Positions 2,943 to 60,522 of a stretch of DNA of 64,000 nt are shown here, piece after piece. The notes under the pieces were generated by a model, which searched no databases, was not told where the DNA came from, and saw nothing but the letters and a program-made list of their open reading frames with translations. Each line of letters opens with the position of its first letter. The stretch's first letter is position 1. The stretch covers positions 29,382-93,381 of the forward strand of contig CAZTCH010000004.1 in assembly GCA_964612745.1 (NCBI GenBank). Reading direction: 5' to 3'. The DNA comes from an uncultured Candidatus Saccharibacteria bacterium (GTDB lineage: Bacteria; Patescibacteriota; Doudnabacteria; UBA920). A program made the position numbers and the translations under genes.

Positions 2943-3262
2943 AGCAGCCACCCAGCCTTCGCATAAAGCTACGGCGGGTTGTTTAACTATGTATTTTCAA
3001 GGGTAAACAAAAAAGCCACGAGCACAGAACCTAGAGCGCCATGTAAAATTACGCTGGTTTGTCGTGACTTTTATAGCGCCCCCAATCCGTGCGATACGGA
3101 ATCAGGAGCATGAAATCTGGCTCTAAGCCAAATAAAAAACCGTAGAATACGGGTGTTTTTAGTTTTTGCGGGTGTTTGTATGTAGACGTATAGTACCTGC
3201 TTGTTGCGGATTTGTCAAGACTCTTGGATAAACCGAAAAAGAACGCATAGATAAGGGAAAAT

Positions 3263-3395
3263 TCCAAATAACAAGCATCAAATATCAAATAAATTCCAAT
3301 ATCAAATAACAAAACGAATACACTTTCTTATTTCGGATATTGTCTATTGGAGCTTATTTGAGTTTTGGATTTTGTTGTTTGTTATTTAAAAAGCC
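3263..3395 (-). repeat. AT-rich ~130-bp repeated element, copy B (inverted vs 1795-1925)
   Basis: See copy A; for example, the reverse complement of 3263-3323 is GTGTATTCGTTTTGTTATTTGATATTGGAATTTATTTGATATTTGATGCTTGTTATTTGGA. Confidence 0.7.
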
Positions 3396-6860: not shown

Positions 6861-7628
6861 ATGAACCATGCATATAACTCAGATGCAGCAAGCCGTGCGT
6901 ACCAAGACTTTCTAGCCTCGGAAGACGGGAAACTTTTCCGTCAAATACTGGGAAGAGAGTTTACCCGAGCACTCCTTGCAAACCAGTCTACACACACAGA
7001 TTCCACTTCTACAATTCTGGATGCTGGGTGTGGAGATGGCTGGCTGGCAGGGCTTTTGTCCGAGCAGTTTCCAAGTGCGACAATCCATGCGTGCGATGCA
7101 GGAGAACCACTTATTACCACAGCAAAGGGCGCATACCCACAAGTACAGTTTTCTGTGTGCGATTTAAATCAACCTCTCCCCTACGAGAACAACATGTTCG
7201 ATGTAGCCTGTGCTTCCATGGTACTGCACGACGTAAGTGACGAAGCTGCAACACTGACCAATATAGCTCATACACTCAAGCCAAACGGCACACTATACGC
7301 CAGTATAGTAAACCCTTACTACGGCTACCCCGTGGGTGAATGGAAACGTGGTATTGTAGGCAGACTACTCGGACAAAAACCCAAGCTCAGGCTCGCCCGC
7401 GCGTACAACGTACTGGCGCGCGAAGCTAGACCAAATTTTGAGTGGCGTGAGCATTTGGGCTCCCACTTTACTCCGCTTGCAGCACACATGGCCGCTGCGC
7501 GTTCTGCTGGACTTGTGGTAAGCAATATTACCGACATTACCAGCACCGCAGACAGCGATACCTACAACCTCACGTACCAACTGCACAGATTTCCAATAAT
7601 TTTACTGCTAGAATTCAAGAAAAAATAA
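6861..7628 (+). CDS. class I SAM-dependent methyltransferase
   Basis: 255 aa; motif I ILDAGCGDGW; acidic motif II (VCDLNQ); MFDVACASMVLHDV. Confidence 0.8.
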   Translation: MNHAYNSDAASRAYQDFLASEDGKLFRQILGREFTRALLANQSTHTDSTSTILDAGCGDGWLAGLLSEQFPSATIHACDAGEPLITTAKGAYPQVQFSVCDLNQPLPYENNMFDVACASMVLHDVSDEAATLTNIAHTLKPNGTLYASIVNPYYGYPVGEWKRGIVGRLLGQKPKLRLARAYNVLAREARPNFEWREHLGSHFTPLAAHMAAARSAGLVVSNITDITSTADSDTYNLTYQLHRFPIILLLEFKKK

Positions 7629-7747
7629 TAGATACCAATATACAAATTGGTACTAATGAAACCAATACATACTAATGTGGTAGATAGCATTCGTACTCAT
7701 TCGTAACATGTGTACTCATTCGTATATTGGTATCTTATATTAGCGTT

Positions 7748-9621: not shown

Positions 9622-9628
9622 AAATGTA

Positions 9629-9685
9629 GTGCCTAGTGCCTAGTGCCTAGTGCCTAGTGCCTAGTGCCTAGTGCCTAGTGCCTAG
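9629..9685. repeat. 8 tandem copies of heptamer GTGCCTA
   Basis: Perfect 7-bp periodicity, visible directly, in the divergent mutM/rel intergenic region. Confidence 0.9.
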
Positions 9686-9718
9686 GAAAATTATAGCGGG
9701 CTGAGCGAGACTGTCCAG

Positions 9719-9880
9719 TGACTAAAAAGGATTGCGGATTGCGGATTGCGGATTATGAATTACGGATTACGGATTGCGTATTTTTCATTCAGCATTTTGC
9801 AATTTGCAATATGCAATATGCATTTCCGCTTTCTACTCTCTATTCTCTGCCCTCTACCCTCTCTGTTCTTTTCCCTGTAC
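9719..9880. repeat. successive heptamer-like arrays (GGATTGC x3 + GGATTAC variants; TGCAATA x4; CTCT(A/G)YY repeats)
   Basis: Direct visual repeats filling the rel upstream region; they also account for the spurious N-terminal extension of the ORF-track rel ORF. Confidence 0.8.
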
Positions 9881-21248: not shown

Positions 21249-21300
21249 AGTAATTGAGTTAGGAGCTATCCGCCGTCGCTAAAGCTATGGCGGACAAGTA

Positions 21301-21385
21301 AATTAGGAATTAGGAGTTAGGGCTATAAGCTATAAGGTATCAGGTATAAGCTATCAGCTATCAGCTATCAGCTATCAGCTATCCA
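21301..21385. repeat. heptamer arrays (AATTAGG x2-3; GCTATAA/GGTATCA/GCTATCA x about 9)
   Basis: AATTAGGAATTAGGAGTTAGG is the reverse complement of the CCTAACTCCTAATTCCT motif. AGCTATC is repeated perfectly 5 times in tandem. Confidence 0.85.
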
Positions 21386-38585: not shown

Positions 38586-39179
38586 TTAAACTTCGTTTCG
38601 CTGCGAAATAAATTTGCCAAGGACGATAAGATACACAATCGGAGCTACAAGCCACAAGAAACTCACACCGTGCTGTACAAATAAGAACTGCACAAGAGGG
38701 TGCAAACTTTGTTGTACATGAGCGGGTACAAACCCCAAAATAATATTGATTAGCAAACCAATCTGTAACAACGCAAACGGAATACCAAAAACCAACGTTG
38801 CTCCGTTACGGCCTTCCGCTGCTGTTCTAAATCCATATTTTGAAAGGAAGAAAAAGAGTACCAAAAAGAGCACCGCAAAAGCAGCAAGGTGCTGTAAGCT
38901 CACAGTAACAATGTTCAGTTTTGCATTTACCAACGTCTGCAAAAATGGCGCTTCAATCACAAGCAGTTTGGCCATGTAGACAGACACTAAAATAGAAAGG
39001 AGTCTTCCCCTGCCCGCTGCAAATGCATACAAAACCGAAGCCACCACCCAAAAAAGCAAAATAAACAAATCCCAGCTTGGAGCTTGCCAGTTGAAACTGC
39101 GAATGAGATGTTGAAATTCGATATACTTTTGCATGAAGCGCGCTGAAAATTCTGATACTAATAGTATAGCATTAACCAT
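38586..39179 (-). CDS. hypothetical polytopic membrane protein
   Basis: 197 aa; about 5 hydrophobic helices; no motif recognised. Confidence 0.5.
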   Translation of the reverse strand: MVNAILLVSEFSARFMQKYIEFQHLIRSFNWQAPSWDLFILLFWVVASVLYAFAAGRGRLLSILVSVYMAKLLVIEAPFLQTLVNAKLNIVTVSLQHLAAFAVLFLVLFFFLSKYGFRTAAEGRNGATLVFGIPFALLQIGLLINIILGFVPAHVQQSLHPLVQFLFVQHGVSFLWLVAPIVYLIVLGKFISQRNEV

Positions 39180-39218
39180 TCTACAAAGCCTGAAACCGAA
39201 TGCTATATACTACTGTAT

Positions 39219-40085
39219 ATGTCGAGTGGAATTCTATTTGCAATCTGCGCGCTCTTTGCGTGGGCCTTCGATGATTTTTACATCGGTCGCGCTACCAAAA
39301 AAATCCAGAGTCTTCCGGCACTACTTGGTCTTTCCGTGCTTGGTCTGGTTATCCTCACTCCATTTGTGCTACCGCAACTTGTATCCCTGTCTATTTCCAC
39401 ACAATTGTGGACGGCTTTGTTCTACCTTGTACTCTGTACATGCGTGGCTGCATATGCAGATTTTGAAGCGCTGAGACTGGGCAAGCTTTCCGTTATCGAT
39501 GCATTGTACGCATTCGAAATTCCGATAACTGCCATATTAGCTTTTGCGTTTCTTGGAGAACGTTTGAGCCCAGTGCAGATATGCCTTGTCGTAAGTCTTG
39601 TGACAGGAATGCTCCTTGTGGCTACACAAAATCTTCCGAGCCGCAAAACATTTCACTGGGAAAAAGGTGTCGGTTATGCCATTATATCGATTATCTGCAT
39701 GGGTGCGGTGAATTTTTTAATCGGCTATAGCGCCCGCCTGAGCAGTCCACTCTTGGTAAATTGGGTTAGTTACTTTGGCCTCGCTTTGTTTAGCATGACC
39801 CTGCTCTCTCTGAAAGGGGTTTTTATAAAAACAATAGGTATAGTTCGGGAGAATAAGCGCTTTGTGATCCCACTGGCAATAGCCGATGTGATTGCGTGGT
39901 CAGCGTTTGCCTATAGCACCACTCGTATCCCTATTGGCATTGCCACTGCGATTAGCGAAACCTACATACTCGTTGCAATTATACTTGGCATTACACTCAA
40001 CAAAGAGCGGATAACCCCACGGCAAGTACTAGGTATATGCATTACGCTGACGAGTGGTGGATTACTCCTCTTCACGCTTACCTAA
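39219..40085 (+). CDS. EamA/DMT-family transporter
   Basis: 288 aa; about 10 TM helices with the two-repeat EamA pattern. Confidence 0.7.
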   Translation: MSSGILFAICALFAWAFDDFYIGRATKKIQSLPALLGLSVLGLVILTPFVLPQLVSLSISTQLWTALFYLVLCTCVAAYADFEALRLGKLSVIDALYAFEIPITAILAFAFLGERLSPVQICLVVSLVTGMLLVATQNLPSRKTFHWEKGVGYAIISIICMGAVNFLIGYSARLSSPLLVNWVSYFGLALFSMTLLSLKGVFIKTIGIVRENKRFVIPLAIADVIAWSAFAYSTTRIPIGIATAISETYILVAIILGITLNKERITPRQVLGICITLTSGGLLLFTLT

Positions 40086-40103
40086 GCAAAAGAAAAGACA
40101 GCT

Positions 40104-41240
40104 TTAGAAGCTGTCTTTTATATTTTCCCAAAAACTTTTGTTGACTGAAATACTTTCTCCATTCAGCTCGCCGAGCTGCTCTATGAGTTCTCGCTCTTTC
40201 TTTGCTAGTTTATTTGGAATAATTACCCGAACAGTCAGGAGTAAATCACCTCGCTTACCAGAGTTTACGTGCGGTACCCCTTTATTTGAAACCTTTAGCA
40301 CTGTACCTGGTTGCGTTCCTGCCGGCACCTTCACTTCCAAAAGTTCGTCCACTGTCTTCACCTCTAGCTTTGCGCCCAAAGCCGCCTGTACGAAGCTAAT
40401 AGGCACTTCTTTATGTAAGTTATACCCGTCTCTGCGAAACTCTTTCGAAGCTGCTACGCGCACAACCAAATACAAATCTCCTGCATTGGATCCTTTATAG
40501 CCAACTTCCCCTTCTCCTTGCATGCGGATACGTTGCCCGTTGTCAATACCTGCAGGGATTTTTACTTCGAGTGTTTTTGGTCTGCGCAACACACCAGATC
40601 CACGACAGATACTACAGGCAACCTCGGGCGTTTTTCCGTCACCCTCACACTGGTCACAGGTGGCTGCAGACTGCATGTTGCCAAAGATTGTCCGTTTGGT
40701 AGTGAGTATCTGCCCTTGCCCATGACACTTCGAACATGTTACCACCTTGGAGCCTTCTGCCGCACCAGTCCCGTGACACACATGGCAGGTGTCTTGTTTT
40801 TCCAGCGTAACACTTTTTGTCACGCCATGGACTGACTCTTCAAAAGAAATACTGAGTGGCATTTCCAAATCTATGCCACGGTTTCGTCTGGACTGCGCCC
40901 CCGCACCACGCCCACCACCAAAAATATCGGAGAAAATATCCCCCAAATCAAATTCAACACCACCTTGACCACCAAAGCCAAAGCCATCAAATGGATTACC
41001 CGCCTGACCACCACCAAAACCACCCGCTTGCTGGTAGTTCTCGCCAAACCGGTCATACTGAGAACGCTTCCCTTGATCAGAAAGTACTTGGTATGCTTCG
41101 TTGACTTCTTTAAATTTTTCTTCGTTTCCTGAACCTTTATCTGGATGAAATTCGTGCGCTTTCTTGCGATACGCTTTTTTTATCTCATCGGCAGATGCAG
41201 ATTTGGAAACACCTAAAATGTCGTAAAAGTTTTTTGCCAT
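40104..41240 (-). CDS. dnaJ: chaperone DnaJ
   Basis: 378 aa; J domain (YDILGV...HPDK), G/F region, four CxxCxGxG repeats. Confidence 0.95.
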
Positions 41241-41280
41241 AGTAGTAAAGCTTATAGCGAGATACCTAATACCTTATAGA

Positions 41281-41643
41281 TCAAGAGCGCATGGTGTTAA
41301 TCATAGCATTCAACATTTTCATAACTTCTGTAAGCACACTTTTTACCTTTTTAATTTCATTTTGATTTGCAAGCCCCAGCATAGAAGCAACTTCTATCTG
41401 AGTTTCAAGTTCTGCGCCTGAAGCAAAAGCGATGGTAAGAAACTGACAATAATCTTTTTTGGTGCTTCTATATCTACCCTCAGCAATATTTGAAGGAATA
41501 GAAACTGCACTGCGCCTCATCTGCGACACTAAACCGAACCTTTCAGCATCAGGAAACTGAGCACTGAGCTCATAAACAAATTTAACTACCACCATTGCTT
41601 TTTGCCAAACAATTAAATCTCTATAACTTTGCTTTGTTTCCAT
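41281..41643 (-). CDS. four-helix-bundle protein (TIGR02436 / '23S rRNA intervening-sequence protein' family; same fold family as DGR Avd)
   Basis: 120 aa; YRDLIVWQKA...SQMRRSAVSIPSNIAEGRYR...FLTIAFASGAELETQIEVA. Inserted between DUF3467 and dnaJ inside the dnaK operon. Confidence 0.85.
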   Translation of the reverse strand: METKQSYRDLIVWQKAMVVVKFVYELSAQFPDAERFGLVSQMRRSAVSIPSNIAEGRYRSTKKDYCQFLTIAFASGAELETQIEVASMLGLANQNEIKKVKSVLTEVMKMLNAMINTMRS

Positions 41644-41698
41644 AGATTATTCTGCTATAAGCTATTTTGCTATGAAATGCCCACCTAACAACTATCCG

Positions 41699-41754
41699 CT
41701 ATAAGGTATAAGGTATCAGGTATAAGGTATCAGGTATAAGGTATCAGGTATAAC
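41699..41754. repeat. tandem GGTATAA/GGTATCA heptamers x8
   Basis: GGTATAAGGTATCAGGTATAAGGTATCAGG..., directly upstream of the 4HB gene. Confidence 0.9.
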
Positions 41755-42063
41755 CTACTCCGTTCTAAACCCTATATGCGGCTGTTGGTCGCTTCCGGCT
41801 TTGATTACTCCAAACTGATCTTCGTACCGCTTCACGTTTTCTTGGAGCGCTGCAGCAAGACGCTTGGCATGCTGCGGTGAAAGTATAACGCGCGCTGTCA
41901 CAACCCCAGAGGGTGGAAACAAGTTCATAAAGTCTATTATGAACTCTTCTGGCGTATGCGCTACTTGTGCCATATTGGCGTACACACCTGCCAAGATTTC
42001 GTCACTCAACTTTACCTGCATCTGGCCTTGCCCTTGTGGAGCCTGTGGATTATTTTGTTGCAT
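41755..42063 (-). CDS. DUF3467-family protein
   Basis: 102 aa; EEFIIDFMNLFPP...ARVILSPQHAKRLAAALQENVKRYE. Confidence 0.6.
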   Translation of the reverse strand: MQQNNPQAPQGQGQMQVKLSDEILAGVYANMAQVAHTPEEFIIDFMNLFPPSGVVTARVILSPQHAKRLAAALQENVKRYEDQFGVIKAGSDQQPHIGFRTE

Positions 42064-42397
42064 GTACGTTTTTTCTAAGTATTAGTTTAGTTTATTTATT
42101 ATTAGCTTTGCGGTAACATCAAAGTAATTAATCGCAACAGCCAAACCATTTCACACAGTAGCACCTACTGTGCCCGCCAAAGCTGTAATCTAGCAAGCCA
42201 CTTCAGCCAAAAGAAGACGAGCGTCTTCTTAAAACCAAAACTGTTCGAATGATGTCGCCCGTGGGCATCGGGGAGGTGGTCCAGTTTTTGCCGAAAATTC
42301 AGTCGCTCAGTAAACTGAGCAAAGGAGGAAACAAGATCGGGTCCGAGTCAACACAACCCTGACACGCACAGCAATGTGCGCGTCAGGGTTGCTTCTT

Positions 42398-44284
42398 TTA
42401 TTTCTTCTCTTCGAATTCTGCATCCACTGTCGGGCTACCATCTGCATTTGGTTGTGCACCACCGTCTGCCGAAGCCCCTGCTGCGGAGTCCGCCGTAGCT
42501 TCAGCGGAGGAGGAATACATCGCTGCTCCTACTTTCTGGATAGCGTCAGACAGTTCAGACATAGCTTTCTGAATAGCTTCGGTGTCTTCTTTGTCTTTTA
42601 CTTCTTTTAAGGCAGCTACTTTTGCTTCCACTGCTGCTTTGTCTTCTGCAGCAGCTTTTTCACCAGCGTCTTTCAAAGTTTTTTCGGACACAGCAATAAG
42701 CTGGTCTGCTTGGTTGCGCAAATCAATTACCTCGCGACGCTTCTTGTCTTCGGACGCATGCGTTTCTGCTTCTTGTTTCATGCGTTCAACTTCTTCTTTG
42801 GACAAGTTAGAAGAACCTTGAATTGTAATGTGCTGCTCTTTACCACTCGCCTTGTCTTTTGCTTTTACAGTCAAAATACCATTCGCATCAATATCGAAAG
42901 TTACTTCTACTTGTGGTACGCCACGAGGTGCTGGAGGTAACCCGTCCAAAATAAACCGACCGAGCGACTTGTTGTCTTGGGCAAACTCACGCTCACCTTG
43001 CAGCACATTGATTTCTACTGATGTCTGATTATCTGCTGCAGTAGAAAATACTTGTGACTTGGAAGTTGGTACAGTGGTATTGCGGTCAATTAATGGAGTG
43101 CGAATGCCGCCCATGGTTTCCAACCCCAAGGTCAAAGGAGTCACGTCCAAAAGCAGAATTTCTTTTCCTTGTACGTCACCAGACAAAATGCCTGCTTGAA
43201 TTGCAGCACCTTTTGCCACTGCTTCCATTGGGTCTACGCCACGCTCTACTTGCTTGCCAATGAACTCTTCCACGAACTTCTGCACTACCGGCATGCGAGT
43301 TGGCCCACCAATCAAAATGATCTTGTCGATTTGTGTTGGGGTCAACTTGGCATCACCCAGAGCTTGGGTTACTGGCTGACGCATGCGATCCACAATAGGC
43401 TTTACTAAATCTTCTAGTCCTGCGCGGGTGTATTTCTTTTGGAAATGCTTTGGCCCATTCGCGTCTGCGGTTATAAACGGCAAGTTAATTTCCGTTTCCA
43501 AGGTAGTAGAAAGTTCTATCTTAGCCTTTTCCGCTGCTTCTCTAACGCGGTTCATAGCCATCTTATCTGTTGTCACATCGACACCTTGTTCAGTCTTGAT
43601 GTCTGCTAAAATACGATCGATAAAGGCCTTGTCCATATCCTTCCCACCAAGCGCTGTATCACCAGAAGTAGAAAGTACTTCAAAAGTCGCTTGCTGCTTC
43701 CCGTCCTCTTCCACTTCACTAAAATCCATAATGGTGACATCGAGCGTACCACCACCCAAATCGAATACTAAAATTTTCTGGTCCTTTGCCGATGTTTTAT
43801 CTAACCCGTAGGCAAATGCAGCAGCAGTAGGTTCGTTGATAACACGTACTACTTCCAAGCCAGCAATCTCACCAGCATTTTTTGTTGCTTGACGTTGAGC
43901 ATCATCAAAATACGCAGGTACGGTAATAACTGCTTTTTCAACTTTACCACCAGTGTAGCTTTCTGCATCACGCTTTATCTTTTGCAAGATAAATGCCGAA
44001 ATTTGCTCAGGGGCATATTCTTTGCCGTTTGCAGAGAACTTTTGACTCGTTCCCATCTTGCGCTTGGCTTCAAAAATAGTACCGTCTGGGTTCGTAACAG
44101 CTTGTCTACGAGCTGGTTCCCCTACCAAAAGCTCACCTTCTTTTGTAAATGCTACATAGGAAGGAAATGCTTTCCCACCCAAAGAAGCACCTTCTGCAGC
44201 TGGAATGATTACTGCTTTGCCGCCTTCCATTACAGAAGCTGCACTGTTGGAAGTACCTAAGTCAATACCAATTATTTTACTCAT
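42398..44284 (-). CDS. dnaK: chaperone DnaK (Hsp70)
   Basis: 628 aa; [18 protein letters not shown], and a C-terminal EEKK-like acidic tail. Confidence 0.97.
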
Positions 44285-44411
44285 ATAAGTATGATTCTTG
44301 TATTACTAATAAACTATCTATTTTAATACAACGTATATACATTTAGTTGGACTTGGCCCAAAATCTGAAAGCAAACTCGTTACTTCCATATTTTGGACCA
44401 ACCCCTATACC

Positions 44412-44747
44412 TTACAACTCGTCTATTGATAACTTTTTAAATGCACCAATAGACATACCGACAATCTTCGTACTCCCGAGCAATTTACGAGAGGTAGCAA
44501 AATCAGATTGGAACTCATCTTTCAACTTCACAAAGACATTCCCTTCTGAACCATCTGACTGTCGCTTCACATGCAATATAATCTTTTTCTTGTTCAGTGT
44601 TTTTCCGGTAATAACACAGTCACTTTGGCTCAGTGCCGGAATATCCGAAGACTTGTCTTCCCATTCGAGAATATCACCTACATCAAACTGATCTTTAATA
44701 AGCATGGTATCTGTTGTTCTGCGCTGATTAGTTATTTCTATTTGCAT
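44412..44747 (-). CDS. hypothetical small protein between dnaK and grpE
   Basis: 111 aa; no motif recognised; coding potential supported only by ORF length and its position in the operon. Confidence 0.4.
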   Translation of the reverse strand: MQIEITNQRRTTDTMLIKDQFDVGDILEWEDKSSDIPALSQSDCVITGKTLNKKKIILHVKRQSDGSEGNVFVKLKDEFQSDFATSRKLLGSTKIVGMSIGAFKKLSIDEL

Positions 44748-44770
44748 AGAAGACGCGCTTTGAGACTGAA

Positions 44771-45334
44771 TTAGTTCGCTTGCTTGCCAATTGCGACTTG
44801 CGCTGGACGTATGAGTTTCCCATTCAGCGTAAACCCTGTTTGGTACACTTGTACGACTACCCCCACCTCCCCGCCATCTACTTCTCGAACAGCTTCGTGG
44901 AAATTGGGATCAAACTTTTGCCCCATGGCTTCTATCTTTGTTACCCCGAGCTCTTCCAAAGCTTTATCTAACTGCTTTACGAAGCCTGCAACACCAGACT
45001 GCCACGTTGCATAGTCTTCCACAAACTTTTTTGCATCCTGACCGCTATCCCTGGTCCATTGCCCGCTCGCCTCAGGTGCGTGCTTCAAAGCTTGTTCGAG
45101 CGTATCTAAGCTTGGTAACAATTTGGCCACCGCTACCTCTCGAGCGAAATCAATGAGCTCCGCATTTTCCTGTTCTTTCCGCTTTTGGTAATTTTGGAAA
45201 TCCGCCTCGCTGCGTCGCCAGCCATTTAAATTTCGTTCTGCTTCTGCACGAGCATCAAACAGTTGTTGGTGCAAATCTGCAGCGTCCTCACTGACTATTT
45301 GTTGTGCATTATCTTGTTCATTCATGTGTTTCAT
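44771..45334 (-). CDS. grpE: nucleotide exchange factor GrpE
   Basis: 187 aa; coiled-coil N-terminus and the GrpE beta domain (GFTLNGKLIRPAQV). Confidence 0.9.
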   Translation of the reverse strand: MKHMNEQDNAQQIVSEDAADLHQQLFDARAEAERNLNGWRRSEADFQNYQKRKEQENAELIDFAREVAVAKLLPSLDTLEQALKHAPEASGQWTRDSGQDAKKFVEDYATWQSGVAGFVKQLDKALEELGVTKIEAMGQKFDPNFHEAVREVDGGEVGVVVQVYQTGFTLNGKLIRPAQVAIGKQAN

Positions 45335-45417
45335 TTAAACATACAAGCATCGAAGCATACAAACAATTGAGCGCACCCTGTTTATATGTTTACACGTTCG
45401 ATGCTTACATGACTGTA

Positions 45418-46158
45418 TTATTTCTCTTTCCCTCCAAGCAGTTTACTAATGTACTCCATGAGACTGACGTTCTTCTCGTATTGCATTGCCTTTGGTCCAA
45501 TAAGACCAAGCACACCCTTTTTACCAGAAGGTAGATTTAAGCCAGACACAATCATGCTGTAATCGCTGCCTTGAGAAAGAGCTATTTCTTTTACGTCACT
45601 CCCAATCATCGCTTTTGGAGAATCGCTTCCACTAAACTCTTTCAGAAGCTCCGGAGCTTTGTCGTCTATGTTGTCAAAAAACTCTGCGACGGCCTTGGCA
45701 TCGTCTGCGGTAAGCTGGGGGTTCCCCAAAAGATTTGCAATACCCATGGTAGACGAATCTTCTGGAAACAAAGCGAAGCTTGCGCCACCAGAAATCTCTG
45801 CGGTGAGCCGTGCTAGTCTTCGACTCATTTCGACATGTGCTGTTTGTAAATGTGCAATTTCTCTCCGCAATCGTTCTTGCTCTTTCATGGATAGCTTCAC
45901 CCGCTCCATAAGCTCCGTTACAAAGTAGCGAAAACCCATATCGGTCGGTACTCTTCCTGCGGACGTATGCGGTTGCATTATGTATCCCAACTTTTCAAGC
46001 ACCTGCATTTCGTTACGAATACTTGCACCCGACAAATCAAAGTAGTCTTTCTCTACTAAATCCTTGCTGGCGACCGGCTGGCCGGTATCGCAATTTTCTT
46101 TCACAATTGCAGCCAAAATCTTGGCTTGGCGAGATGATATCTCTGGGTAATCTGACAT
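45418..46158 (-). CDS. hrcA: heat-inducible transcription repressor HrcA
   Basis: N-terminal wHTH (RQAKILAAIVKENCDTGQPVASKDL); start at MSDYPEISS. Confidence 0.9.
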   Translation of the reverse strand: MSDYPEISSRQAKILAAIVKENCDTGQPVASKDLVEKDYFDLSGASIRNEMQVLEKLGYIMQPHTSAGRVPTDMGFRYFVTELMERVKLSMKEQERLRREIAHLQTAHVEMSRRLARLTAEISGGASFALFPEDSSTMGIANLLGNPQLTADDAKAVAEFFDNIDDKAPELLKEFSGSDSPKAMIGSDVKEIALSQGSDYSMIVSGLNLPSGKKGVLGLIGPKAMQYEKNVSLMEYISKLLGGKEK

Positions 46159-46178
46159 GCATATAGAATATAAAAATA

Positions 46179-46205
46179 TTATCACTCTGTCAAGAAGAGT
46201 GACAA
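46179..46205. promoter_or_regulatory. CIRCE-variant operator TTATCACTC-N9-GAGTGACAA, 20 bp upstream of hrcA
   Basis: 9-bp inverted repeat with a 9-bp spacer. It matches CIRCE (TTAGCACTC-N9-GAGTGCTAA) in 7 of 9 positions in each half. Confidence 0.6.
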
Positions 46206-46298
46206 TATGAAAACATCACGCTATGTAAAGTTGACTTGACATTACATACGCCCCCATATATGCTCTCTATATATTACTAAGTGTTCAGATTCAATCGC

Positions 46299-46799
46299 AT
46301 GAAACAAACAAAAGCTGCCTTTGCCCTCCTTGCTGTAGTTTTTATCGCTGCAGGATGCAGTAAAGCAACCACGCAAAACAACGAGCCAACACCGACCCCG
46401 CTCCCAAGCCAAGCACAAGAGAGTACTCCCCTCCCTACTCCAAGTAAGATGAGCCTCAATCAACCATCACCCACCACTCCTACGGCCACTGCACAATATA
46501 AAGACTACTCAGCAGATGCTGTTGCCAAAGCCCAACAAGAAAACAAACGAGTGGTGCTATTTTTCCACGCAGCATGGTGTCCTACCTGTATAGCTGCAAA
46601 CAAAGCATTTAACGCAAACACGAACCAACTCCCCGCAGATGTTGTATTGCTCAAAACTGACTACGACACAGAAACAACACTCAAGAAAAAATATGCAATC
46701 ACCTACCAACACACATTCGTGCAAATAGATGCTTCCGGTAACCAAATAAGCAAGTGGACCGGTGGAGACGTGGAGAGTTTGAAGAAATACTTAAAATAG
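46299..46799 (+). CDS. thioredoxin-fold lipoprotein (WCPTC active site)
   Basis: Lipobox LAAGC; Pro/Thr-rich linker; LFFHAAWCPTC. Confidence 0.75.
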   Translation: MKQTKAAFALLAVVFIAAGCSKATTQNNEPTPTPLPSQAQESTPLPTPSKMSLNQPSPTTPTATAQYKDYSADAVAKAQQENKRVVLFFHAAWCPTCIAANKAFNANTNQLPADVVLLKTDYDTETTLKKKYAITYQHTFVQIDASGNQISKWTGGDVESLKKYLK

Positions 46800-46834
46800 C
46801 TATTAGGTGCTAGGAACTAGCTTCTAGTAAACAT

Positions 46835-47200
46835 ATGATTCAAAGCCATAAAGACCTCATAGTTTGGCAAAAGTCGATTACCTTAGTGACAGAGATTTAC
46901 CTTCTTACAAAAAACTTTCCGAAGGAAGAAATGTTTGGCCTAACGAGCCAAATTCGACGTACGGCAGTCTCAATACCTGCAAATATCGCCGAAGGTAGGA
47001 ACAGAGGTAGTAAAAGAGATTTTAGACACTTTTTATTGATTGCTTTTGCATCAGCAAATGAATTAGAGACACATTTGCTTATAGCAAAAAACCTATCTTA
47101 CACCACAGAAAATGAATTTTCTAGCACAACTGTTGCCACCACAGAAATATGCAAAATGTTGAGCACGATGATTAATAAATTGTCTGAACCTAGCTCCTAG
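46835..47200 (+). CDS. four-helix-bundle protein (TIGR02436 family), second copy
   Basis: 121 aa; HKDLIVWQKS...SQIRRTAVSIPANIAEGRNRGSKRDFRHFLLIAFASANELETHLLIA. Confidence 0.85.
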   Translation: MIQSHKDLIVWQKSITLVTEIYLLTKNFPKEEMFGLTSQIRRTAVSIPANIAEGRNRGSKRDFRHFLLIAFASANELETHLLIAKNLSYTTENEFSSTTVATTEICKMLSTMINKLSEPSS

Positions 47201-47224
47201 ATCCTAACTCCTAACAGCTATCCT

Positions 47225-48856
47225 ATGATTGAACTTCTTCTCTCCTTCATTGCCGGCATACTGACTATTGCCGCTCCGTGCATACTGTTGCCGTTGCCCA
47301 TTCTTCTTGGCGCATCGGTTGGACAATCGCATAAAGCTCGCCCACTGTTTATTACAGCCGGGTTTGTGGTCACTTTTTCCGCGCTCGGAATTAGCATTAA
47401 CCTGCTCGTTCGCACACTTGGCATTGACCCAACAACACTGAGACATGCTGCAGTAGTTCTCCTGAGTCTGTTTGCCCTGTTCATGATTTGGCCAACACCC
47501 TTTGAGCGAGCCATGCAACACATGTCCGGACTCATTGCAAAAGCTGCAAAAACTGGCCAGCGCGCTGGGTCTGGTAACTGGGGTGGTTTTGTTATGGGTG
47601 TAATTATTGGCGTTGTCTGGGCACCATGCGCTGGGCCAATATTGGGCTCTATTTTAACACTCATCGCTCAGGAGTCCGAATCACTCCAAGCTTTTGCCTT
47701 GCTCGTCGCCTACTCTCTAGGGGCTGGAGTACCCATGCTACTTATTGCCTATGGCAGCCAAACTTTGAGCACAAAAATAAAGGTAATCGCTCAGTACGCA
47801 ACTCGTCTCCAACAAGTTTTTGGAGTCATCCTACTTTTAGTAGCTGCAAGCATTTATTTCCAATACGATACAAAAATCCAAGCATACTTAGTAGAGCAGT
47901 TTCCTGTGTTCGGTACGACACTGGAAAGCAAAATCCAAAAACAACTCGCGCCAACGCCAACCCCTTCCAGCAGCAACGCGCCAGCTCCAGAATTTTCCGA
48001 AATTTCTGCTTGGTTAAATACGTCTGAGCCAATTACACTTTCCTCCCTCCGTGGCAAAGTAGTCTTAGTAGATTTCTGGACATACTCGTGCATTAATTGT
48101 GTGCGTACCTTACCGTACATAACCAAACTGTACGAAACATACAAAGACCAAGGACTGGTAGTCATTGGCGTGCACACTCCGGAATTTGCTTTTGAGAAAG
48201 ACAAGACCAATGTTGCAAAAGCGCTTACGCAATACGACATTACATACCCCGTTGCTTTAGACAATGCATACGGCACATGGAATGCGTACGATAACCAATA
48301 CTGGCCAGCAAAATACCTTGTAGACCAACAAGGGAACATTATATACACCCACTTTGGTGAAGGCGCATACACAGAAACAGAAAACGCAGTCAGAAAACTG
48401 CTTGGACTTAGCACCAACACCACCCTCTCTGAAACGCCGAAAATAAATTACTCACAAACTCCAGAAATATATTTTGGTACCAATCGTCTTGAGTACTTTG
48501 CGTACTCCACCAAGCCCAGCTTTAACGCAACGGAATACGTCATCCCCAACAGACTCAGCCTGAACTATTTTGCACTGTCTGGAACATGGCAATTTAGCGC
48601 AGACAAAACCAAACTCACCAAGCCAACTGGTACAATCAAACTACACTTCCAAGGTAAGACTGTGTACATGGTTGCGGCAAGCCCAGAGAAAGCTCAAAGT
48701 GTGACTGTGCGAGCAGACAGTGGAGAAAATGCCACCGTGCAAATATCTGAGCACACCCTCTACCCCCTACTCCAATTCCCCACTGCTGGAGAACACACTA
48801 TTGAAATTAACATCCCCACCGCTGGGTTTGAGGCGTACACATTTACGTTTGGCTAA
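47225..48856 (+). CDS. DsbD/CcdA-like membrane thiol-disulfide transporter fused to a TlpA/ResA-type thioredoxin domain
   Basis: 543 aa; CcdA-type TM Cys (IAAPC..., VWAPCAGP) and C-terminal WTYSCINCVRTLP thioredoxin motif. Confidence 0.8.
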   Translation: MIELLLSFIAGILTIAAPCILLPLPILLGASVGQSHKARPLFITAGFVVTFSALGISINLLVRTLGIDPTTLRHAAVVLLSLFALFMIWPTPFERAMQHMSGLIAKAAKTGQRAGSGNWGGFVMGVIIGVVWAPCAGPILGSILTLIAQESESLQAFALLVAYSLGAGVPMLLIAYGSQTLSTKIKVIAQYATRLQQVFGVILLLVAASIYFQYDTKIQAYLVEQFPVFGTTLESKIQKQLAPTPTPSSSNAPAPEFSEISAWLNTSEPITLSSLRGKVVLVDFWTYSCINCVRTLPYITKLYETYKDQGLVVIGVHTPEFAFEKDKTNVAKALTQYDITYPVALDNAYGTWNAYDNQYWPAKYLVDQQGNIIYTHFGEGAYTETENAVRKLLGLSTNTTLSETPKINYSQTPEIYFGTNRLEYFAYSTKPSFNATEYVIPNRLSLNYFALSGTWQFSADKTKLTKPTGTIKLHFQGKTVYMVAASPEKAQSVTVRADSGENATVQISEHTLYPLLQFPTAGEHTIEINIPTAGFEAYTFTFG

Positions 48857-48993
48857 AGAACACAGATACACCCGACTTCGCTAAAGCTACGACGGGCAAG
48901 CAAGCAAAACCGATTACACGGATGCAAACCCACTGATGAACAGCATGAATCCGTGTTATCTGTGAAATCTGTGTATCTGTGGTTACACATAAT

Positions 48994-49597: not shown

Positions 49598-49630
49598 GTA
49601 AAACAAAAAACCGCTTTTGCGGTTTTTTGT
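49598..49630. terminator. terminator (AAAACAAAAAACCGC-TTTT-GCGGTTTTTTGT)
   Basis: Hairpin with flanking A- and T-runs. Confidence 0.7.
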
Positions 49631-49640
49631 ATTACTACCA

Positions 49641-49695
49641 CCTACCCTTCGGCCGTGAGCTCAGGGTCGAACGACAACCTAACTCCTAATTCCTA
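49641..49695 (-). repeat. conserved 55-nt 3'-UTR element (copy 2)
   Basis: See 2013-2067; lies immediately 3' of the uvrA stop. Confidence 0.7.
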
Positions 49696-53507: not shown

Positions 53508-55553
53508 ATGGCCCAAACACTACAAAACCAAATAGTTCACTTCCCTCACGCTGCAGGATGCTACCTTTTTAAGGACGCCGCTGGAGTGGTTTTGTACGTG
53601 GGCAAAGCAAAAGACTTGCGAAAGCGCACATCGCAATACTTCGGGCAAGACAAACGACCACAGCTCCCCTTTTTAATAGAGGAAGCCACGAGCATAGATT
53701 TTATAGTAGCCCGAACTGAGCTAGAGGCGCTGTTTTTGGAAAACACGCTCATTAAAAAGCACAATCCTAAGTACAACATTAAACTAAAGGACGACAAAAA
53801 CTACGCGTTCATTGCCATTAACAACAGCACGCAAATCCCCCAAATTGGGTATGTCCGCAAAATTACTGACTCGGCTAGTTTTACCCCATTTGTAAATCCA
53901 TCCGCCTCTTGGGGTAGTGGCAAACACGAACGCAAACGGCTAAAAGTAACCAGCAGCAAACGAGGGGCATCCTCGTCTGCCGCTGACGAGGATGCCCCTC
54001 GTCGTGCAGCAACCCATCTCTTACCAGCTAATTCCTACTTCGGGCCGTACAGTTCGGTAAAAAAAATCCGCGATACGCTAGATTTTGTGCGGAAGATTTT
54101 CCCTTACTGTGCAAATACCGAAGTTGGTACGCGTCCTTGTTTTTACTACCACCTACATCGCTGTCCTGGGGTTTGTATTGGCGTAATTAGCTTAGAAGAA
54201 TACGCTGGCAGTCTTGAACGTATAAAACTGTTTTTGCAAGGAAAGACTCAAGCAATAAAGAAAGAACTACGCACGAGCATGCACGCAGCTTCTGCCAACA
54301 AACGGTTCGAGCTTGCCGCACGATTGCGTGACCAACTCAAGGCACTTGAGCTACTAGACGAACGACAGATTGCCCAGTTCCCCAGCAAAGTAAATTATGA
54401 CTTTATATCTACCGCAGAATCCGGTGCTTTGTGTTGTGTGAATTTGTTTAAAGTACGCGACGGCAAACTCACCGACAAAGAAAGTTTTGTGTACAGCCAA
54501 ACAACCACCGAGCAAGTTATCGAAGAAGAAAATACAAACCAAGTTGTTTCTTCTGCGGCCATGTTCCAACAAAAATTTGCCGAAACGTACTACGCAGAAA
54601 CAACAGACGTCCCTGCTGCGATTTTTACGCAACACGCATTCCCCGACCCTGACTTTATTACCGCCGTCCTCCAACATCGCACAACAAAGAAAATACCACT
54701 CAGCGTGCCCAAACGTGGTAAACAAGTACAACTCATTTCTCTTGGTGCAACAAATGCAGCAGAGTACTTGCGCAAAACACTCGCCACAGACGCTACCGAT
54801 GCCGACAAGCTACACGAAGCACTCGTCTTTCTACAGCAAACACTCAAGCTACCTACCTTACCCAGACGAATAGAATGCTACGACATGTCCAACACGCAAG
54901 GCACCAACCCTGTGGGAAGTATGGTTGTGTTTGTAGACGGCAAACCAGCCAAATCGGAATACCGTAAATTTAAAATCCGAAGCAAAGACACTCCGGACGA
55001 CTTTGCCATGATGCGAGAAGTACTAACTCGTAGACTCGCCAGAATGCAAAATGCAAAATTAGAAATGCAAAATGAAGAGCAAGAGACTTCTGCGCTCCCG
55101 CTCTGGCCAAGACCCGACCTTATAGTAATTGACGGTGGCAAAGGACAACTCTCGGCTGCTCTATCTGCGCAAGATTCATTTCTAAAAGGTATAAGCTATA
55201 AGCTAGCAGCTATTCCAATGGTTGGACTTGCCAAGCGCATAGAAGAAATTTTCCTACCAGAAAACCCTGTACCAATTATTCTGAATCACGACACTCCTGC
55301 ACTGCAAATGTTGCAAAGGCTACGTGACGAAGCTCATCGTTTTGGCATAACCTTCCACCGCTCTTTGCGCAGCAAACAAGCTACCAAATCTGCGCTGGAC
55401 ACCATTGCTGGAATTGGTCCAAAAACAAAAAAACTGCTCAAACAAAAGTTTGGAACAGTCAGCGCCATAAAAGAAGCGCTCCGCACAGAACCAGAAAAAC
55501 TGGAAGCACTCGTAGGTAAAGTAAAAGCAGAGATACTAAAGAAAAATCTGTAA
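53508..55553 (+). CDS. uvrC: excinuclease ABC subunit C
   Basis: 681 aa; GIY-YIG N-terminus (GCYLFKDAAGVVLYVGKAKDLRKR), UvrBC region, C-terminal HhH. Confidence 0.95.
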   Translation: MAQTLQNQIVHFPHAAGCYLFKDAAGVVLYVGKAKDLRKRTSQYFGQDKRPQLPFLIEEATSIDFIVARTELEALFLENTLIKKHNPKYNIKLKDDKNYAFIAINNSTQIPQIGYVRKITDSASFTPFVNPSASWGSGKHERKRLKVTSSKRGASSSAADEDAPRRAATHLLPANSYFGPYSSVKKIRDTLDFVRKIFPYCANTEVGTRPCFYYHLHRCPGVCIGVISLEEYAGSLERIKLFLQGKTQAIKKELRTSMHAASANKRFELAARLRDQLKALELLDERQIAQFPSKVNYDFISTAESGALCCVNLFKVRDGKLTDKESFVYSQTTTEQVIEEENTNQVVSSAAMFQQKFAETYYAETTDVPAAIFTQHAFPDPDFITAVLQHRTTKKIPLSVPKRGKQVQLISLGATNAAEYLRKTLATDATDADKLHEALVFLQQTLKLPTLPRRIECYDMSNTQGTNPVGSMVVFVDGKPAKSEYRKFKIRSKDTPDDFAMMREVLTRRLARMQNAKLEMQNEEQETSALPLWPRPDLIVIDGGKGQLSAALSAQDSFLKGISYKLAAIPMVGLAKRIEEIFLPENPVPIILNHDTPALQMLQRLRDEAHRFGITFHRSLRSKQATKSALDTIAGIGPKTKKLLKQKFGTVSAIKEALRTEPEKLEALVGKVKAEILKKNL

Positions 55554-59144: not shown

Positions 59145-59231
59145 GGGCGTATGGTGGAATTGGTATACACGTACGCTTCAGGTGCGTATGGGAGTAATCC
59201 CGTGAGAGTTCGAGTCTCTCTACGCCCACCA
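59145..59231 (+). tRNA. tRNA-Leu (anticodon CAG), long variable arm, CCA encoded
   Basis: GGGCGTA acceptor, TGGTGGAATTGGTA D-arm (the Leu signature), anticodon loop UUCAGGU, variable arm GGGAGTAATCCC, T-arm GAGTTCGAGTCTC, ...TACGCCCACCA. Confidence 0.8.
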
Positions 59232-59303
59232 TTTATATACAACACGTCCCGCCGCATGGCGGGGTGACCGCAAGGTCGTGGAGGTTCGAGTCCTCTTCTG
59301 GGC
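59228..59303 (+). repeat. tRNA-3'-half-like unit X (ACCA + 19-nt spacer TTTATATACAACACGTCCC + hairpin + T-arm + acceptor 3' strand + ACCA). A partial copy lies at 60402-60456.
   Basis: 59228-59282 is identical to 60402-60456 (55/55). Confidence 0.7.
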
Positions 59304-59380
59304 ACCATTTATATACAACACGTCCCGATGTCGCATCGGGATGGGAGCAATCCCGTGAGAGTTCGAGTCTCTCTACGCCC
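59304..59380 (+). repeat. 77-bp direct repeat Y-left (contains the 3' 40 nt of tRNA-Leu: variable arm + T-arm + acceptor 3' strand). Putative attL.
   Basis: Identical to 60325-60401 (77/77). The internal GGGAGCAATCCCGTGAGAGTTCGAGTCTCTCTACGCCC matches tRNA-Leu 59192-59228 with one mismatch. Confidence 0.8.
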
Positions 59381-59425
59381 GCAGTAAGAAAAAAGTATCG
59401 GCAGACCCGAGTGCTTTTAAAAAAT

Positions 59426-60241
59426 ATGTCTCACGGATTAACATATATAAAATCAAAAGGTAAATGTATTTATTGCGATAAATCAGATACCGATCTTAGC
59501 GATGAACATATTGTACCACTTTCCCTTGGCGGCGTTCATATTATACAAAAAGCGAGTTGTTCTAATTGTGCAAAAATAACAAGTGGTTTTGAAGGTAACG
59601 TTGCTCAGGGTTTATGGGGTGATGCGAGGGTAGCTTTTAACGCTCCGACGCGACACCTTAAAAAAAGAAAGGGTGTTATTTCTACTAAAATTTCTCAAGG
59701 CACTAAAGAAATTGAAATTTCAAGTACTGAATATCCTGCCGGCTTTGTTTTTTACCGCATGAATATTCCAGGTATATTACAAGGACTACCAGAAAATAAG
59801 GATGTTTCTGCTTTATGGACAATGGATATGGTTGACGATGACAAAAGGAGAGAGGATTTTTTTAAGAAACACGGTAGCTATCCAACACTAAAGTTTAAAC
59901 ACGTACCTCAAGATTTTGGGCGAATGCTGATTAAGATAGGCTATGGACATATTCTGACCTTTCTCGAGCCTGAAGATTTCAACCCTTTCTGTTTGCCATA
60001 TATTTTGGGAGAAAAACAAAATGTATCTTATTTGGTTGGGGAGCAGGCAAAAAATGTTGCTCCTAGCCTTGACCTGGGATATTCGCTTCATGCAAAAGGT
60101 TTTGTGATTTCAGAAAATAGACTTTTACTAATTGCAATAGTTAGACTTTATGCGAACACACATTCTCCTGAATATGAAATAGTGGTTGGTGATGTTCTTG
60201 GTTTTGAAAAAATTACTCAAGTTTTGAAAAAGATAACATGA
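59426..60241 (+). CDS. HNH-endonuclease-domain protein (N-terminal CxxC...HIVPLSLGG...CxxC HNH motif; C-terminal about 200 aa of unknown function) on an AT-rich cassette
   Basis: 271 aa from the ATG at 59426; the track ORF upstream extension is read-through of the tRNA-like repeats. GC is about 35%. Confidence 0.6.
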   Translation: MSHGLTYIKSKGKCIYCDKSDTDLSDEHIVPLSLGGVHIIQKASCSNCAKITSGFEGNVAQGLWGDARVAFNAPTRHLKKRKGVISTKISQGTKEIEISSTEYPAGFVFYRMNIPGILQGLPENKDVSALWTMDMVDDDKRREDFFKKHGSYPTLKFKHVPQDFGRMLIKIGYGHILTFLEPEDFNPFCLPYILGEKQNVSYLVGEQAKNVAPSLDLGYSLHAKGFVISENRLLLIAIVRLYANTHSPEYEIVVGDVLGFEKITQVLKKIT

Positions 60242-60324
60242 CCTAAGTGCCCCACAAACCCAAGAGAAAAGTGCTAGAATGTCCTTACAAGGGTTATATC
60301 TCTGGGTACTTAACCCGAGTGGTC

Positions 60325-60401
60325 TACCATTTATATACAACACGTCCCGATGTCGCATCGGGATGGGAGCAATCCCGTGAGAGTTCGAGTCTCTCTACGC
60401 C
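60325..60401 (+). repeat. 77-bp direct repeat Y-right (putative attR)
   Basis: See Y-left. Confidence 0.8.
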
Positions 60402-60480
60402 CACCATTTATATACAACACGTCCCGCCGCATGGCGGGGTGACCGCAAGGTCGTGGATGCTTAAATCTTCTTCCGAGGAG

Positions 60481-60522
60481 CAGTAATAGTGGCTGACCAA
60501 TTTGGTCAGTCACTATTACTTT
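60481..60522 (+). terminator. near-perfect 18-bp hairpin (AGTAATAGTGGCTGACCAA-TTT-GGTCAGTCACTATTACT) followed by TTTG
   Basis: Visible palindrome immediately after the repeat block. Confidence 0.6.

Follow-up and report, generated by a model that had tools for sequence, protein, structure and literature searches.

The DNA analyzed is a stretch of 64,000 nt (positions 29,382 to 93,381 of the forward strand of contig CAZTCH010000004.1, assembly GCA_964612745.1) from an uncultured Candidatus Saccharibacteria bacterium (Doudnabacteria; UBA920). This entire 64-kb stretch is called "the window" here, and all coordinates count from window position 1. The region from 41241 to 41754 is located in a chaperone gene cluster that, according to the list of open reading frames (ORFs) and the Pfam assignments, has the order hrcA-grpE-orf111-dnaK-DUF3467-cassette-dnaJ, with every gene on the minus strand. 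An ORF enclosed by two inverted arrays of repeats of about 7 nt lies between the host gene upstream, the DUF3467 gene (41755-42063; PF11950, E 3.6e-28), and the host gene downstream, dnaJ (40104-41240; DnaJ, DnaJ_C, and DnaJ_CXXCXGXG domains). The region is probably a single copy of a small palindromic gene cassette inserted exactly at this intercistronic junction. An earlier sequence-only reading had placed an insertion into a canonical hrcA-grpE-dnaK-dnaJ operon; the insertion stood but the plain operon did not, because orf111 and the DUF3467 gene are also present and the true site is the DUF3467-dnaJ junction. An independent Logan contig (L001) and a conspecific metagenome-assembled genome (MAG; L006) confirmed the junction, and an assembly artifact was rejected because independent assemblies carry it. 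Relative to the ATG of the ORF, the Logan contig stops at 90 nt upstream, which is inside the heptamer array in window coordinates.

The ORF (41281-41643, minus strand, 363 bp including the stop codon) encodes 120 aa and belongs to PF05635/TIGR02436, the four-helix-bundle (4HB) family of the proteins from 23S rRNA intervening sequences (IVSs). The PF05635 score was 128.1 bits against a cutoff of 33.8, with ORF residues 8-113 matching profile positions 1-106 of 106, and the TIGR02436 score was 120.4 bits against a cutoff of 24. The coordinates and the TIGR02436 membership in the sequence-only reading were correct. The single-domain protein contains the S-I-P-x-N-I-A-E-G core, in which S48, I49, P50, N52, I53, A54, E55, and G56 are invariant in the family alignment. 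The nearest solved structure by sequence homology is 2gsc, XCC0516 of Xanthomonas campestris (E 4.7e-26, residues 6-119), which is described as a homopentamer according to the statement cited in PMC4990558 and which, according to PMC10053308, can be aligned structurally with Avd (4DWL). Purifying selection acts on the ORF, with 8 synonymous versus 2 non-synonymous differences to the L006 copy and a dN/dS of 0.06. No defense-system match for the locus was obtained with PADLOC. The family comprises 20,034 clusters at 50% identity with E values up to 1e-3, and 6,996 with E values up to 1e-10.

Both arms of the cassette are composed of heptamers. The 5' arm (41693-41754, minus strand) begins right after the DUF3467 stop codon and contains about eight tandem units, which read TTATACC/TGATACC in the coding direction and GGTATAA/GGTATCA on the plus strand. 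The repeat finder TRF reported 41700-41753 with period 7 and 7.7 copies, or period 14 at 97% match, in agreement with the eight-copy array previously noticed. The copy number differs within the species, with about 4 to 5 units in L006. A leader (41644-41692, minus strand) separates the array from the ATG and contains the inner half of an inverted repeat (IR), GCTATAAGCT at 41654-41663, extendable to 41654-41674. The 3' arm (41241-41280, minus strand) consists of reverse-complement heptamers at 41261-41279 plus AGCTTATAGC at 41249-41258, which sits 22 nt past the ORF stop codon; the arm ends 8 nt before the dnaJ ATG. The sequence-only reading had regarded this 10-bp IR as the boundary of a unit of roughly 415 bp. 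The positions of both halves and the 22-nt distance were correct; the distance between the upstream half and the ATG is 10 nt rather than 11 nt, which counts the offset; and the unit is bounded by the inverted heptamer arrays rather than by the 10-mer alone. In the window, four copies of the 10-mer GCTATAAGCT are present (21322, 41249, 41654, and 55195) versus 0.11 expected, a number reached in 0 of 100 shuffles, and hence not at random frequency. Since every copy sits in a heptamer array, the 10-mer represents two units of the heptamer family GCTATAA/GGTATAA/GCTATCA/GGTATCA and is no unique terminus.

The longer inverted arms are 41261-41279 and 41699-41717 (19 nt, 95%), and 41261-41279 is also complementary to the 5' array in several later registers. 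A second inverted pair is 41238-41258 and 41654-41674 (21 nt, 81%). The flank-to-flank IR score was 35, compared to 30 for the 99th percentile of a cross-locus null derived from the 74 homologous loci described below. When the entire unit was folded as RNA, a closing stem of 17 bp (41262-41278 with 41707-41723) appeared in both the minimum free energy and the centroid structure.

The history of the junction was deduced from relatives. A DnaJ scan of species-representative genomes yielded 17 loci from MAGs of the candidate phyla radiation (CPR; Patescibacteria) labelled Doudnabacteria or Saccharibacteria. Only 2 to 8 nt separate the DUF3467 stop codon from the dnaJ ATG in L007, L009, L011, and L012 (outgroup, DnaJ about 62% identical), and the cassette is an insertion relative to this ancestral tight junction. 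The 120-aa ORF was found in the window and in the conspecific L006 only, and L016 carries a different paralogue with 54% identity to the ORF and 68% to a second copy in the window. In four other relatives, L002, L003, L004, and L005, the junction is ORF-less and harbors a spacer of 70 to 85 nt composed of two inverted repeat arrays and a short loop. The same gene at the same place without an IR, which the sequence-only reading had named as evidence against its proposal, was not found in that form. The ORF-less spacers of L003 (z -7.0) and L005 (z -5.5) folded far better than shuffled sequences, and that of L002 modestly better (z -2.2). The spacer of L004 folded no better than shuffles (z -0.8) and was described as decayed. 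As candidate loop remnants, ACGAGGC shared by the ORF-less loops of L002 and L004, with AGACGAGGC within the 4HB gene of L005, was considered and rejected as too short and post hoc.

The tree of DnaK plus DnaJ had the topology (L016,((L002,L005),((window,L006),(L003,L004)))). The sister pairs L002/L005 and L003/L004, with 95 to 96% DnaK plus DnaJ identity, carry unrelated occupants at the dnaJ site, and L004 has almost the same 3' arm as the non-sister L016. A second junction, between a gene for a thioredoxin-like protein (trx) and a DsbD-like gene, gave the same picture. There, the stop codon and the ATG abut in L007, L011, and L012, L003 contains an ORF-less heptamer hairpin and L004 a solo arm, and L002, L005, and the window possess 4HB genes with differing arms. 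In L006, a run of N (391-491) is located exactly at this position, so that this genome says nothing about absence of the second cassette. The dnaJ-site and the trx-DsbD-like junctions turn over rapidly between sister genomes, with varied cassettes or ORF-less hairpins as occupants; at the dnaJ site, nearly every close relative has an occupant of its own. Because ORF-less heptamer hairpins hold the same junction in sister genomes, the hairpin and not the gene alone belongs to what turns over.

The second cassette of the window is located between the thioredoxin-like and the DsbD-like gene, and its ORF (46835-47200, plus strand, 121 aa, PF05635 138 bits) is the sole other homologue in the window, with 52% identity to the first in a tblastn comparison. 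Its 5' arm (46796-46827, plus strand; TTAGGTG/CTAGGAA/CTAGCTT units) begins within the stop codon of the thioredoxin-like gene. Its 3' arm (47186-47221, plus strand; CCTAGCT/CCTAGAT/CCTAACT units, reported by TRF as 47189-47215 with period 7) overlaps the final codons of the ORF, and 3 nt separate its end from the ATG of the next gene. This copy possesses an IR of its own, 46796-46827 with 47190-47221 (32 nt, 78%), built from heptamers that differ from those of the first cassette. The cassette at the dnaJ site of L016 aligns with this second cassette from 49 nt before the ATG, across the 5' arm and into the ORF, and the alignment stops at the host gene. The score of these two 5' arms was the third highest, in the top 0.12% of 2,404 homologue pairs in non-orthologous contexts. 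The share of pairs with similar 5' arms was 0.4% at 40 to 50% protein identity, 13.6% at 60 to 70%, and 25% above 70%. The 5' arm and the ORF travel jointly to different genomic contexts. The sequence-only reading had stated that the gene behaves like a "tiny selfish insertion cassette"; gain, loss, and relocation agree with this wording, with "selfish" remaining an interpretation.

A metagenome scan with an alignment of four 4HB proteins yielded 80 loci, with 74 genes for which both flanks were available. The flank IR score exceeded the 95th percentile of the cross-locus null in 68% of these 74 loci and the 99th percentile in 38%, compared to 5% and 4% for a direct-repeat control at the same percentiles. 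This agrees with the expectation from the earlier reading that each copy of the gene may have its own short IR. Duplexes between the two arms of a locus were far better than those between arms of different loci (p about 1e-18). The autocorrelation peaked at lags 7 and 14 in both flanks (0.38 and 0.34 versus about 0.27), with no such peaks in the coding sequence. Up to a distance of 150 nt from the gene, the density of period-7 arrays was about 18 times that in the remainder of the loci, but the enrichment over intergenic DNA alone is smaller because this remainder is mostly coding. As in the second cassette, the 3' arm often starts within the final codons of the ORF. The heptamers had no common consensus except for a weak nTAGnnn core (4.5 bits versus 3.3 in shuffled sequences, n = 26), which is missing from the first cassette of the window. 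No rRNA was present in the 20 strongest homologous loci. The median gaps to the neighboring genes were 49 and 32 nt, and 84% and 81% of the neighbors were co-oriented, which is probably no higher than the genomic background and hence no test. The number of heptamer arrays per 10 kb was 2.3 to 5.3 in the subclade versus 0 to 1.5 in more distant relatives. The design with inverted heptamer arms is general in the sample tested.

The same architecture was found in cultured organisms. A tblastn search against plasmids gave matches almost only in cyanobacteria, and three of the five cyanobacterial plasmid loci checked had clear inverted arms. On pNPUN01 of Nostoc punctiforme, a 4HB gene follows an integrase gene and is flanked by GGGTGTG and CCCACAC arrays. 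The gene on pANA02 of Anabaena sp. 90 sits between cas6 and cas4 with GGTGACA and CTGTCAC arrays, and that on a plasmid of Picosynechococcus PCC 7003 between cmr2 and cmr3 with GGAGATA and TATCTCC units. In Xanthomonas campestris and X. arboricola, for which genome records were used, the orthologue of XCC0516 is located between accB and accC within a 47-nt IR of GGGAATC-type heptamers. The score of this IR was 54, and 1,000 shuffles scored 29 at most. Both arms show the unit variants GGGAGT and GAGAAT as mirror images, and the paired arms mismatch at each seventh position.

Among the closest known systems is the ORF-bearing 23S rRNA IVS of Coxiella burnetii, Leptospira, Brucella, and Xanthomonas, which shares with the cassette the PF05635 cargo, the complementary termini, and the position of the ORF in the loop. 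The IVS of Coxiella burnetii is a 428-nt element with a 28-bp stem of terminal inverted repeats and the S23p ORF of the PF05635 family in the loop. It has 2 to 3 tandem GACAGAT heptamers upstream of the ORF, the number of which varies between strains, it is cut by RNase III in the stem, and it is regarded as a selfish element with unknown mobility (PMC4990558). The variable number of upstream heptamers corresponds to the difference between the window and L006 described above. In contrast to the IVS, which is located in helix 25 or 45 of the 23S rRNA, the cassette is positioned between two protein genes, DUF3467 and dnaJ, and an Rfam search of 39000-48500 at E values up to 1 yielded no rRNA and no match apart from a chance match to an sRNA. 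Both arms of the cassette are themselves heptamer arrays, its ORF-less derivatives hold the same junctions in sister genomes, and excision by RNase III has been demonstrated for the IVS, whereas it is proposed by analogy only for the cassette.

Like Correia, ERIC/IRU, REP/BIME, and REPIN elements and other MITEs (miniature transposable elements with inverted repeats), the cassette is small, has terminal IRs, occupies transcribed intergenic spacers, and is present or absent among close relatives. Such elements form hairpins in mRNA, and those of the Correia type are cleaved by RNase III. They are non-coding, however, and their many copies are nearly identical and follow a fixed consensus, whereas the cassette contains a conserved ORF and its arms share a period and no common sequence, possibly except for the weak nTAGnnn core. 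The two copies in the window differ in their arms and, at the protein level, have only the 52% identity mentioned, and we know of no partner transposase for the cassette. With the heptameric simple sequence repeats (SSRs) of bacteria, such as the cyanobacterial STRR, GGGAATC of Xanthomonas, GGGGA(C/T)T of Nostoc, and TAACTGA of Beggiatoaceae, the cassette shares tandem intergenic heptamers that vary in length among close relatives (PMC4692102, PMC4679880). The 4HB gene of Xanthomonas is flanked by exactly the GGGAATC units. The arrays of the cassette differ from these SSRs in being mirror pairs around a specific ORF. GGGAATC is an unexplained enriched repeat in X. campestris and X. axonopodis; in X. 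campestris, 84 arrays on the plus strand, 102 on the minus strand, and 70 convergent (inverted) pairs were counted, and cruciforms were discussed (Rehm et al., PMC4692102). A TIGR-Tas array was also considered for the cassette. The units of such an array measure about 36 nt, each with an edge repeat, a 9-nt spacer, a loop repeat, and another spacer, and the array lies beside a Tas protein with a Nop domain (PMC12045711), and this assignment was rejected for the cassette with its 7-nt units without spacers and an adjacent protein of PF05635 instead of the Nop domain. Neither PMC4692102 nor the Beggiatoaceae heptamer paper, PMC4679880, mentions this gene family, and full-text literature searches retrieved no paper linking heptamer arrays to the 4HB gene family outside rRNA. 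The architecture is found across phyla, is apparently undescribed, and carries the IVS concept over from rRNA into operon junctions between protein-coding genes.

In the operon, the DUF3467 gene is preceded by dnaK (42398-44284), orf111 (44412-44747, 111 aa, without a Pfam or NCBIfam match), grpE (44771-45334), and hrcA (45418-46185). The position of orf111 between grpE and dnaK is kept in L002, L005, L006, and L015, and DUF3467, present in 12 related loci, is located between dnaK and dnaJ in most relatives. Directly upstream of hrcA, an operator-like sequence, TTGTCACTC-N9-GAGTGATAA (46176-46208, minus strand), which we take to resemble the CIRCE consensus, overlaps promoter-like hexamers. 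Terminator-like hairpins are located after dnaK (42303-42322) and after dnaJ (40093-40119), the latter being strong and bidirectional. No promoter-like site was found upstream of the 120-aa ORF, which suggests that the cassette ORF is co-transcribed with the operon.

On this basis, we consider it probable that the element is a mobile, IVS-like stem-loop gene cassette with a 4HB gene in the loop between inverted arrays of repeats of about 7 nt. Such a cassette would have no promoter of its own and would be transcribed together with the operon. In the transcript, the arms may pair into a stem of about 17 to 30 bp around the ORF, as in the ORF-bearing 23S rRNA IVS. If RNase III cut in this stem, a 4HB mRNA with a hairpin cap would be set free, and dnaJ would no longer be coupled to dnaK-DUF3467. 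Because the RNA-strand-specific pairing tests described below were negative, this RNase III model stays an analogy. Movement and replacement would take place at the DNA level, perhaps with a trans-acting enzyme, or perhaps through recombination or template switching among heptamer arrays with units in common at many junctions. The latter route is suggested because arrays of the same units sit at other junctions. An example is the ORF-less array at the hisS-HIT junction (21301-21383; AATTAGG/AGTTAGG and then GCTATAA/GGTATCA/GCTATCA), which joins units of the arms of both cassettes. The ORF-less hairpins may be decayed cassettes or the basal element.

Several results weigh against such a mobile stem-loop cassette. 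The entire unit folded no more stably than shuffled sequences (z -0.9). The two IR pairs are ordered A-B-ORF-A'-B', so that nested stems cannot exist together and the pairs must be alternatives. In 38 stems, 38 mismatches of the G.U type and 33 of the A.C type were counted (p 0.64), which gives no indication of selection for RNA-level pairing on the coding strand, and the duplex energies of sense and antisense strands did not differ (p 0.9). The sense strand had an advantage over the antisense strand in four ORF-less hairpins, a sample that is too small. Junctions inspected by eye showed no target-site duplication, and Pfam revealed neither a recombinase nor a transposase domain in the two cargo ORFs and 16 other ORFs of the window. 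The 4HB protein itself is without a known catalytic motif. No clear IR was found at the loci of Nostoc sp. PCC 7120 and Calothrix (L099, L103), the remaining two of the five cyanobacterial plasmid loci, and the Gemmatirosa locus had a weak one. Since CPR-type queries had been used and the 80 metagenomic loci are their best matches, "family-wide" is a statement about this sample, and heptamer arrays are also common at gene-free junctions, with probably only a modest enrichment over intergenic DNA. Finally, the cassettes of the window and L006 are 97% identical compared to 90 to 92% for the flanking genes (dS 0.12 versus 0.41 to 0.44), but this difference lies within a mosaic identity landscape. 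A recent sweep of the cassette was rejected as an explanation, because a sliding identity plot revealed equally conserved stretches inside dnaK and dnaJ and the signal is not decisive.

Some of these results would fit a palindromic mobile element of the MITE or REP type that acts at the DNA level and for which an RNA structure is incidental. In this case, the arms would be recognition or hairpin sites, as single-stranded DNA or cruciforms, for an enzyme encoded elsewhere, comparable to RAYT for REPs, TnpA of IS200/IS605, or the integron integrase at attC, and the 4HB gene would be cargo or an accessory. The symmetry of mismatch types and duplex energies between the strands is what is expected of DNA repeats. 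Presence or absence, replacement, and relocation at two junctions, the ORF-less versions at the same sites, further palindromic elements with repeat-built arms in the window, and the 70 inverted GGGAATC pairs with the cruciforms discussed for X. campestris point in the same direction. This explanation faces the absence of a candidate enzyme from the 18 ORFs of the window scanned against Pfam and the missing target-site duplication as well, and the arm sequences, which are wholly different between cassettes, are hard to reconcile with one sequence-specific enzyme. It overlaps with the mobile stem-loop cassette, for which movement is already at the DNA level, and differs mainly by denying a role at the transcript level; we regard it as rather unlikely but worth keeping in mind. 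Alternatively, the heptamer hairpins may be intercistronic regulatory elements made by the host through polymerase slippage, such as processing or stability signals, attenuators, or terminators, with the 4HB gene as an ordinary resident gene that is prone to lie in such spacers, perhaps for a hairpin-binding regulator, and no mobile cassette at all. Heptamer arrays are indeed a lineage-wide intergenic feature at many gene-free junctions, the within-species difference in copy number fits slippage, heptameric SSRs are over-represented in bacteria (PMC4692102), and the neighbors are mostly co-oriented with small gaps. However, the 5' arm and the ORF occur together at non-orthologous sites, the paralogue at one and the same junction differs between sister genomes or is missing, and the arms of L004 match those of the non-sister L016. 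Moreover, slippage alone does not mirror the flanks unit by unit, as seen for the variants GGGAGT and GAGAAT in both arms of Xanthomonas. Host-made elements are an improbable explanation.

The sequence-only reading had also called the gene Avd-like, and the ORF was considered as part of a diversity-generating retroelement (DGR), either its accessory subunit Avd or a remnant. CPR genomes are considered DGR-rich, the fold families of DGR Avd and the cassette protein are homologous four-helix bundles, and a weak similarity to the bAvd and Avd models exists, with 27.4 bits for PF22296 and 34 bits for NF033474. Both values missed the curated cutoffs, which are 40 bits for PF22296 and 80 bits for the equivalog NF033474, while the models for IVS proteins scored far higher, at 120 to 128 bits. 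Neither a YxDD nor a GNxxSQ motif of a reverse transcriptase was present in the six-frame translation of the 64-kb window, and the repeats of the window contained nothing like a pair of template and variable repeats. The only repeat of 126 nt is associated with a tRNA, and its mismatches are not adenine-specific. The neighboring genes encode chaperones. The protein is a TIGR02436 member and no DGR Avd, the search for a reverse transcriptase or a repeat pair that the sequence-only reading had proposed came out in favor of its cassette, and an origin from a DGR is very hard to believe.

Other repeat structures were observed in the window. The uvrC gene (53508-55553) contains, inside its reading frame and in the region of the RNase H-like domain, two arrays of the heptamer type, AATGCAA with 4.6 copies at 55043-55074 and GGTATAA-GCTATAA-GCTAGCA, which holds the cassette 10-mer GCTATAAGCT, at 55182-55213. 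The UvrC protein of the window has 681 aa and is longer than a typical UvrC. A dispersed repeat of 72 nt (1996-2067 and 49624-49695, 89% identical) ends in CCTAACT/CCTAATT, which are units of the 3' arm of the second cassette. Another motif, CCGCCGTCGCTAAAGCTATGGCGG..., of 32 nt and distinct from this repeat, is found three times beside repeat arrays (21270-21301, 48872-48903, and 5021-5052). A palindromic element of about 130 nt is present twice (1789-1922 and 3258-3391); its copies, 81% complementary to each other and each a hairpin with arms of about 50 nt made of short A/T-rich repeats, flank nusB (2065-2496) and the repeat arrays 2504-2582 and 2881-2942. A divergent intergenic region (9627-9880) harbors four heptamer arrays in a row, TAGTGCC with 8.4 perfect copies, GGATTGC with 7.7, TGCAATA with 3.6, and TCTACCC with 4.4, and GGATTGC and TGCAAT(A/T) are partly complementary when G.U pairs are allowed. 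Between convergent genes, a hairpin (7624-7741) has 54-nt arms that are 74% complementary and a 10-nt loop, and one of its arms is a tandem repeat of about 10 nt, CATTCGTACT. Finally, an ORF for an HNH endonuclease (59264-60241) follows a tRNA-Leu gene (59145-59231) and is bracketed by duplicated 3' parts of the tRNA gene; 59304-59380 equals 60326-60402 at 100%, and 59188-59313 matches 60363-60488 at 90%. This region (59145-60488) resembles a small mobile element inserted at a tRNA gene.

We know of no function assigned to the PF05635/TIGR02436 family since the description of the IVS ORFs during the 1990s. Tentatively, and with less confidence than for the mobile stem-loop cassette itself, the TIGR02436 proteins may be dedicated partners of genome-wide heptamer hairpins across bacteria, serving as a factor for their mobility, maintenance, or processing. 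If so, the excess of heptameric repeats such as STRR and GGGAATC, the ORF-bearing rRNA IVSs, and the thousands of orphan "four helix bundle protein" genes in conserved operons (dnaK-dnaJ, accB-accC, cas6-cas4, and cmr2-cmr3) would be aspects of one family of elements that colonizes transcribed junctions. For annotation, the arrays break assemblies, as seen by the end of the Logan contig and the run of N in L006, and they split conserved operons. The family gains a concrete genetic context of inverted heptamer arms, junctions in essential operons, and turnover between sister genomes, and a large orphan family is tied to the unexplained excess of heptameric repeats in bacteria. With Xanthomonas campestris, for which the crystal structure of XCC0516 is available, Picosynechococcus, and Nostoc, tractable carriers can be named in which processing, binding, and mobility are directly testable.

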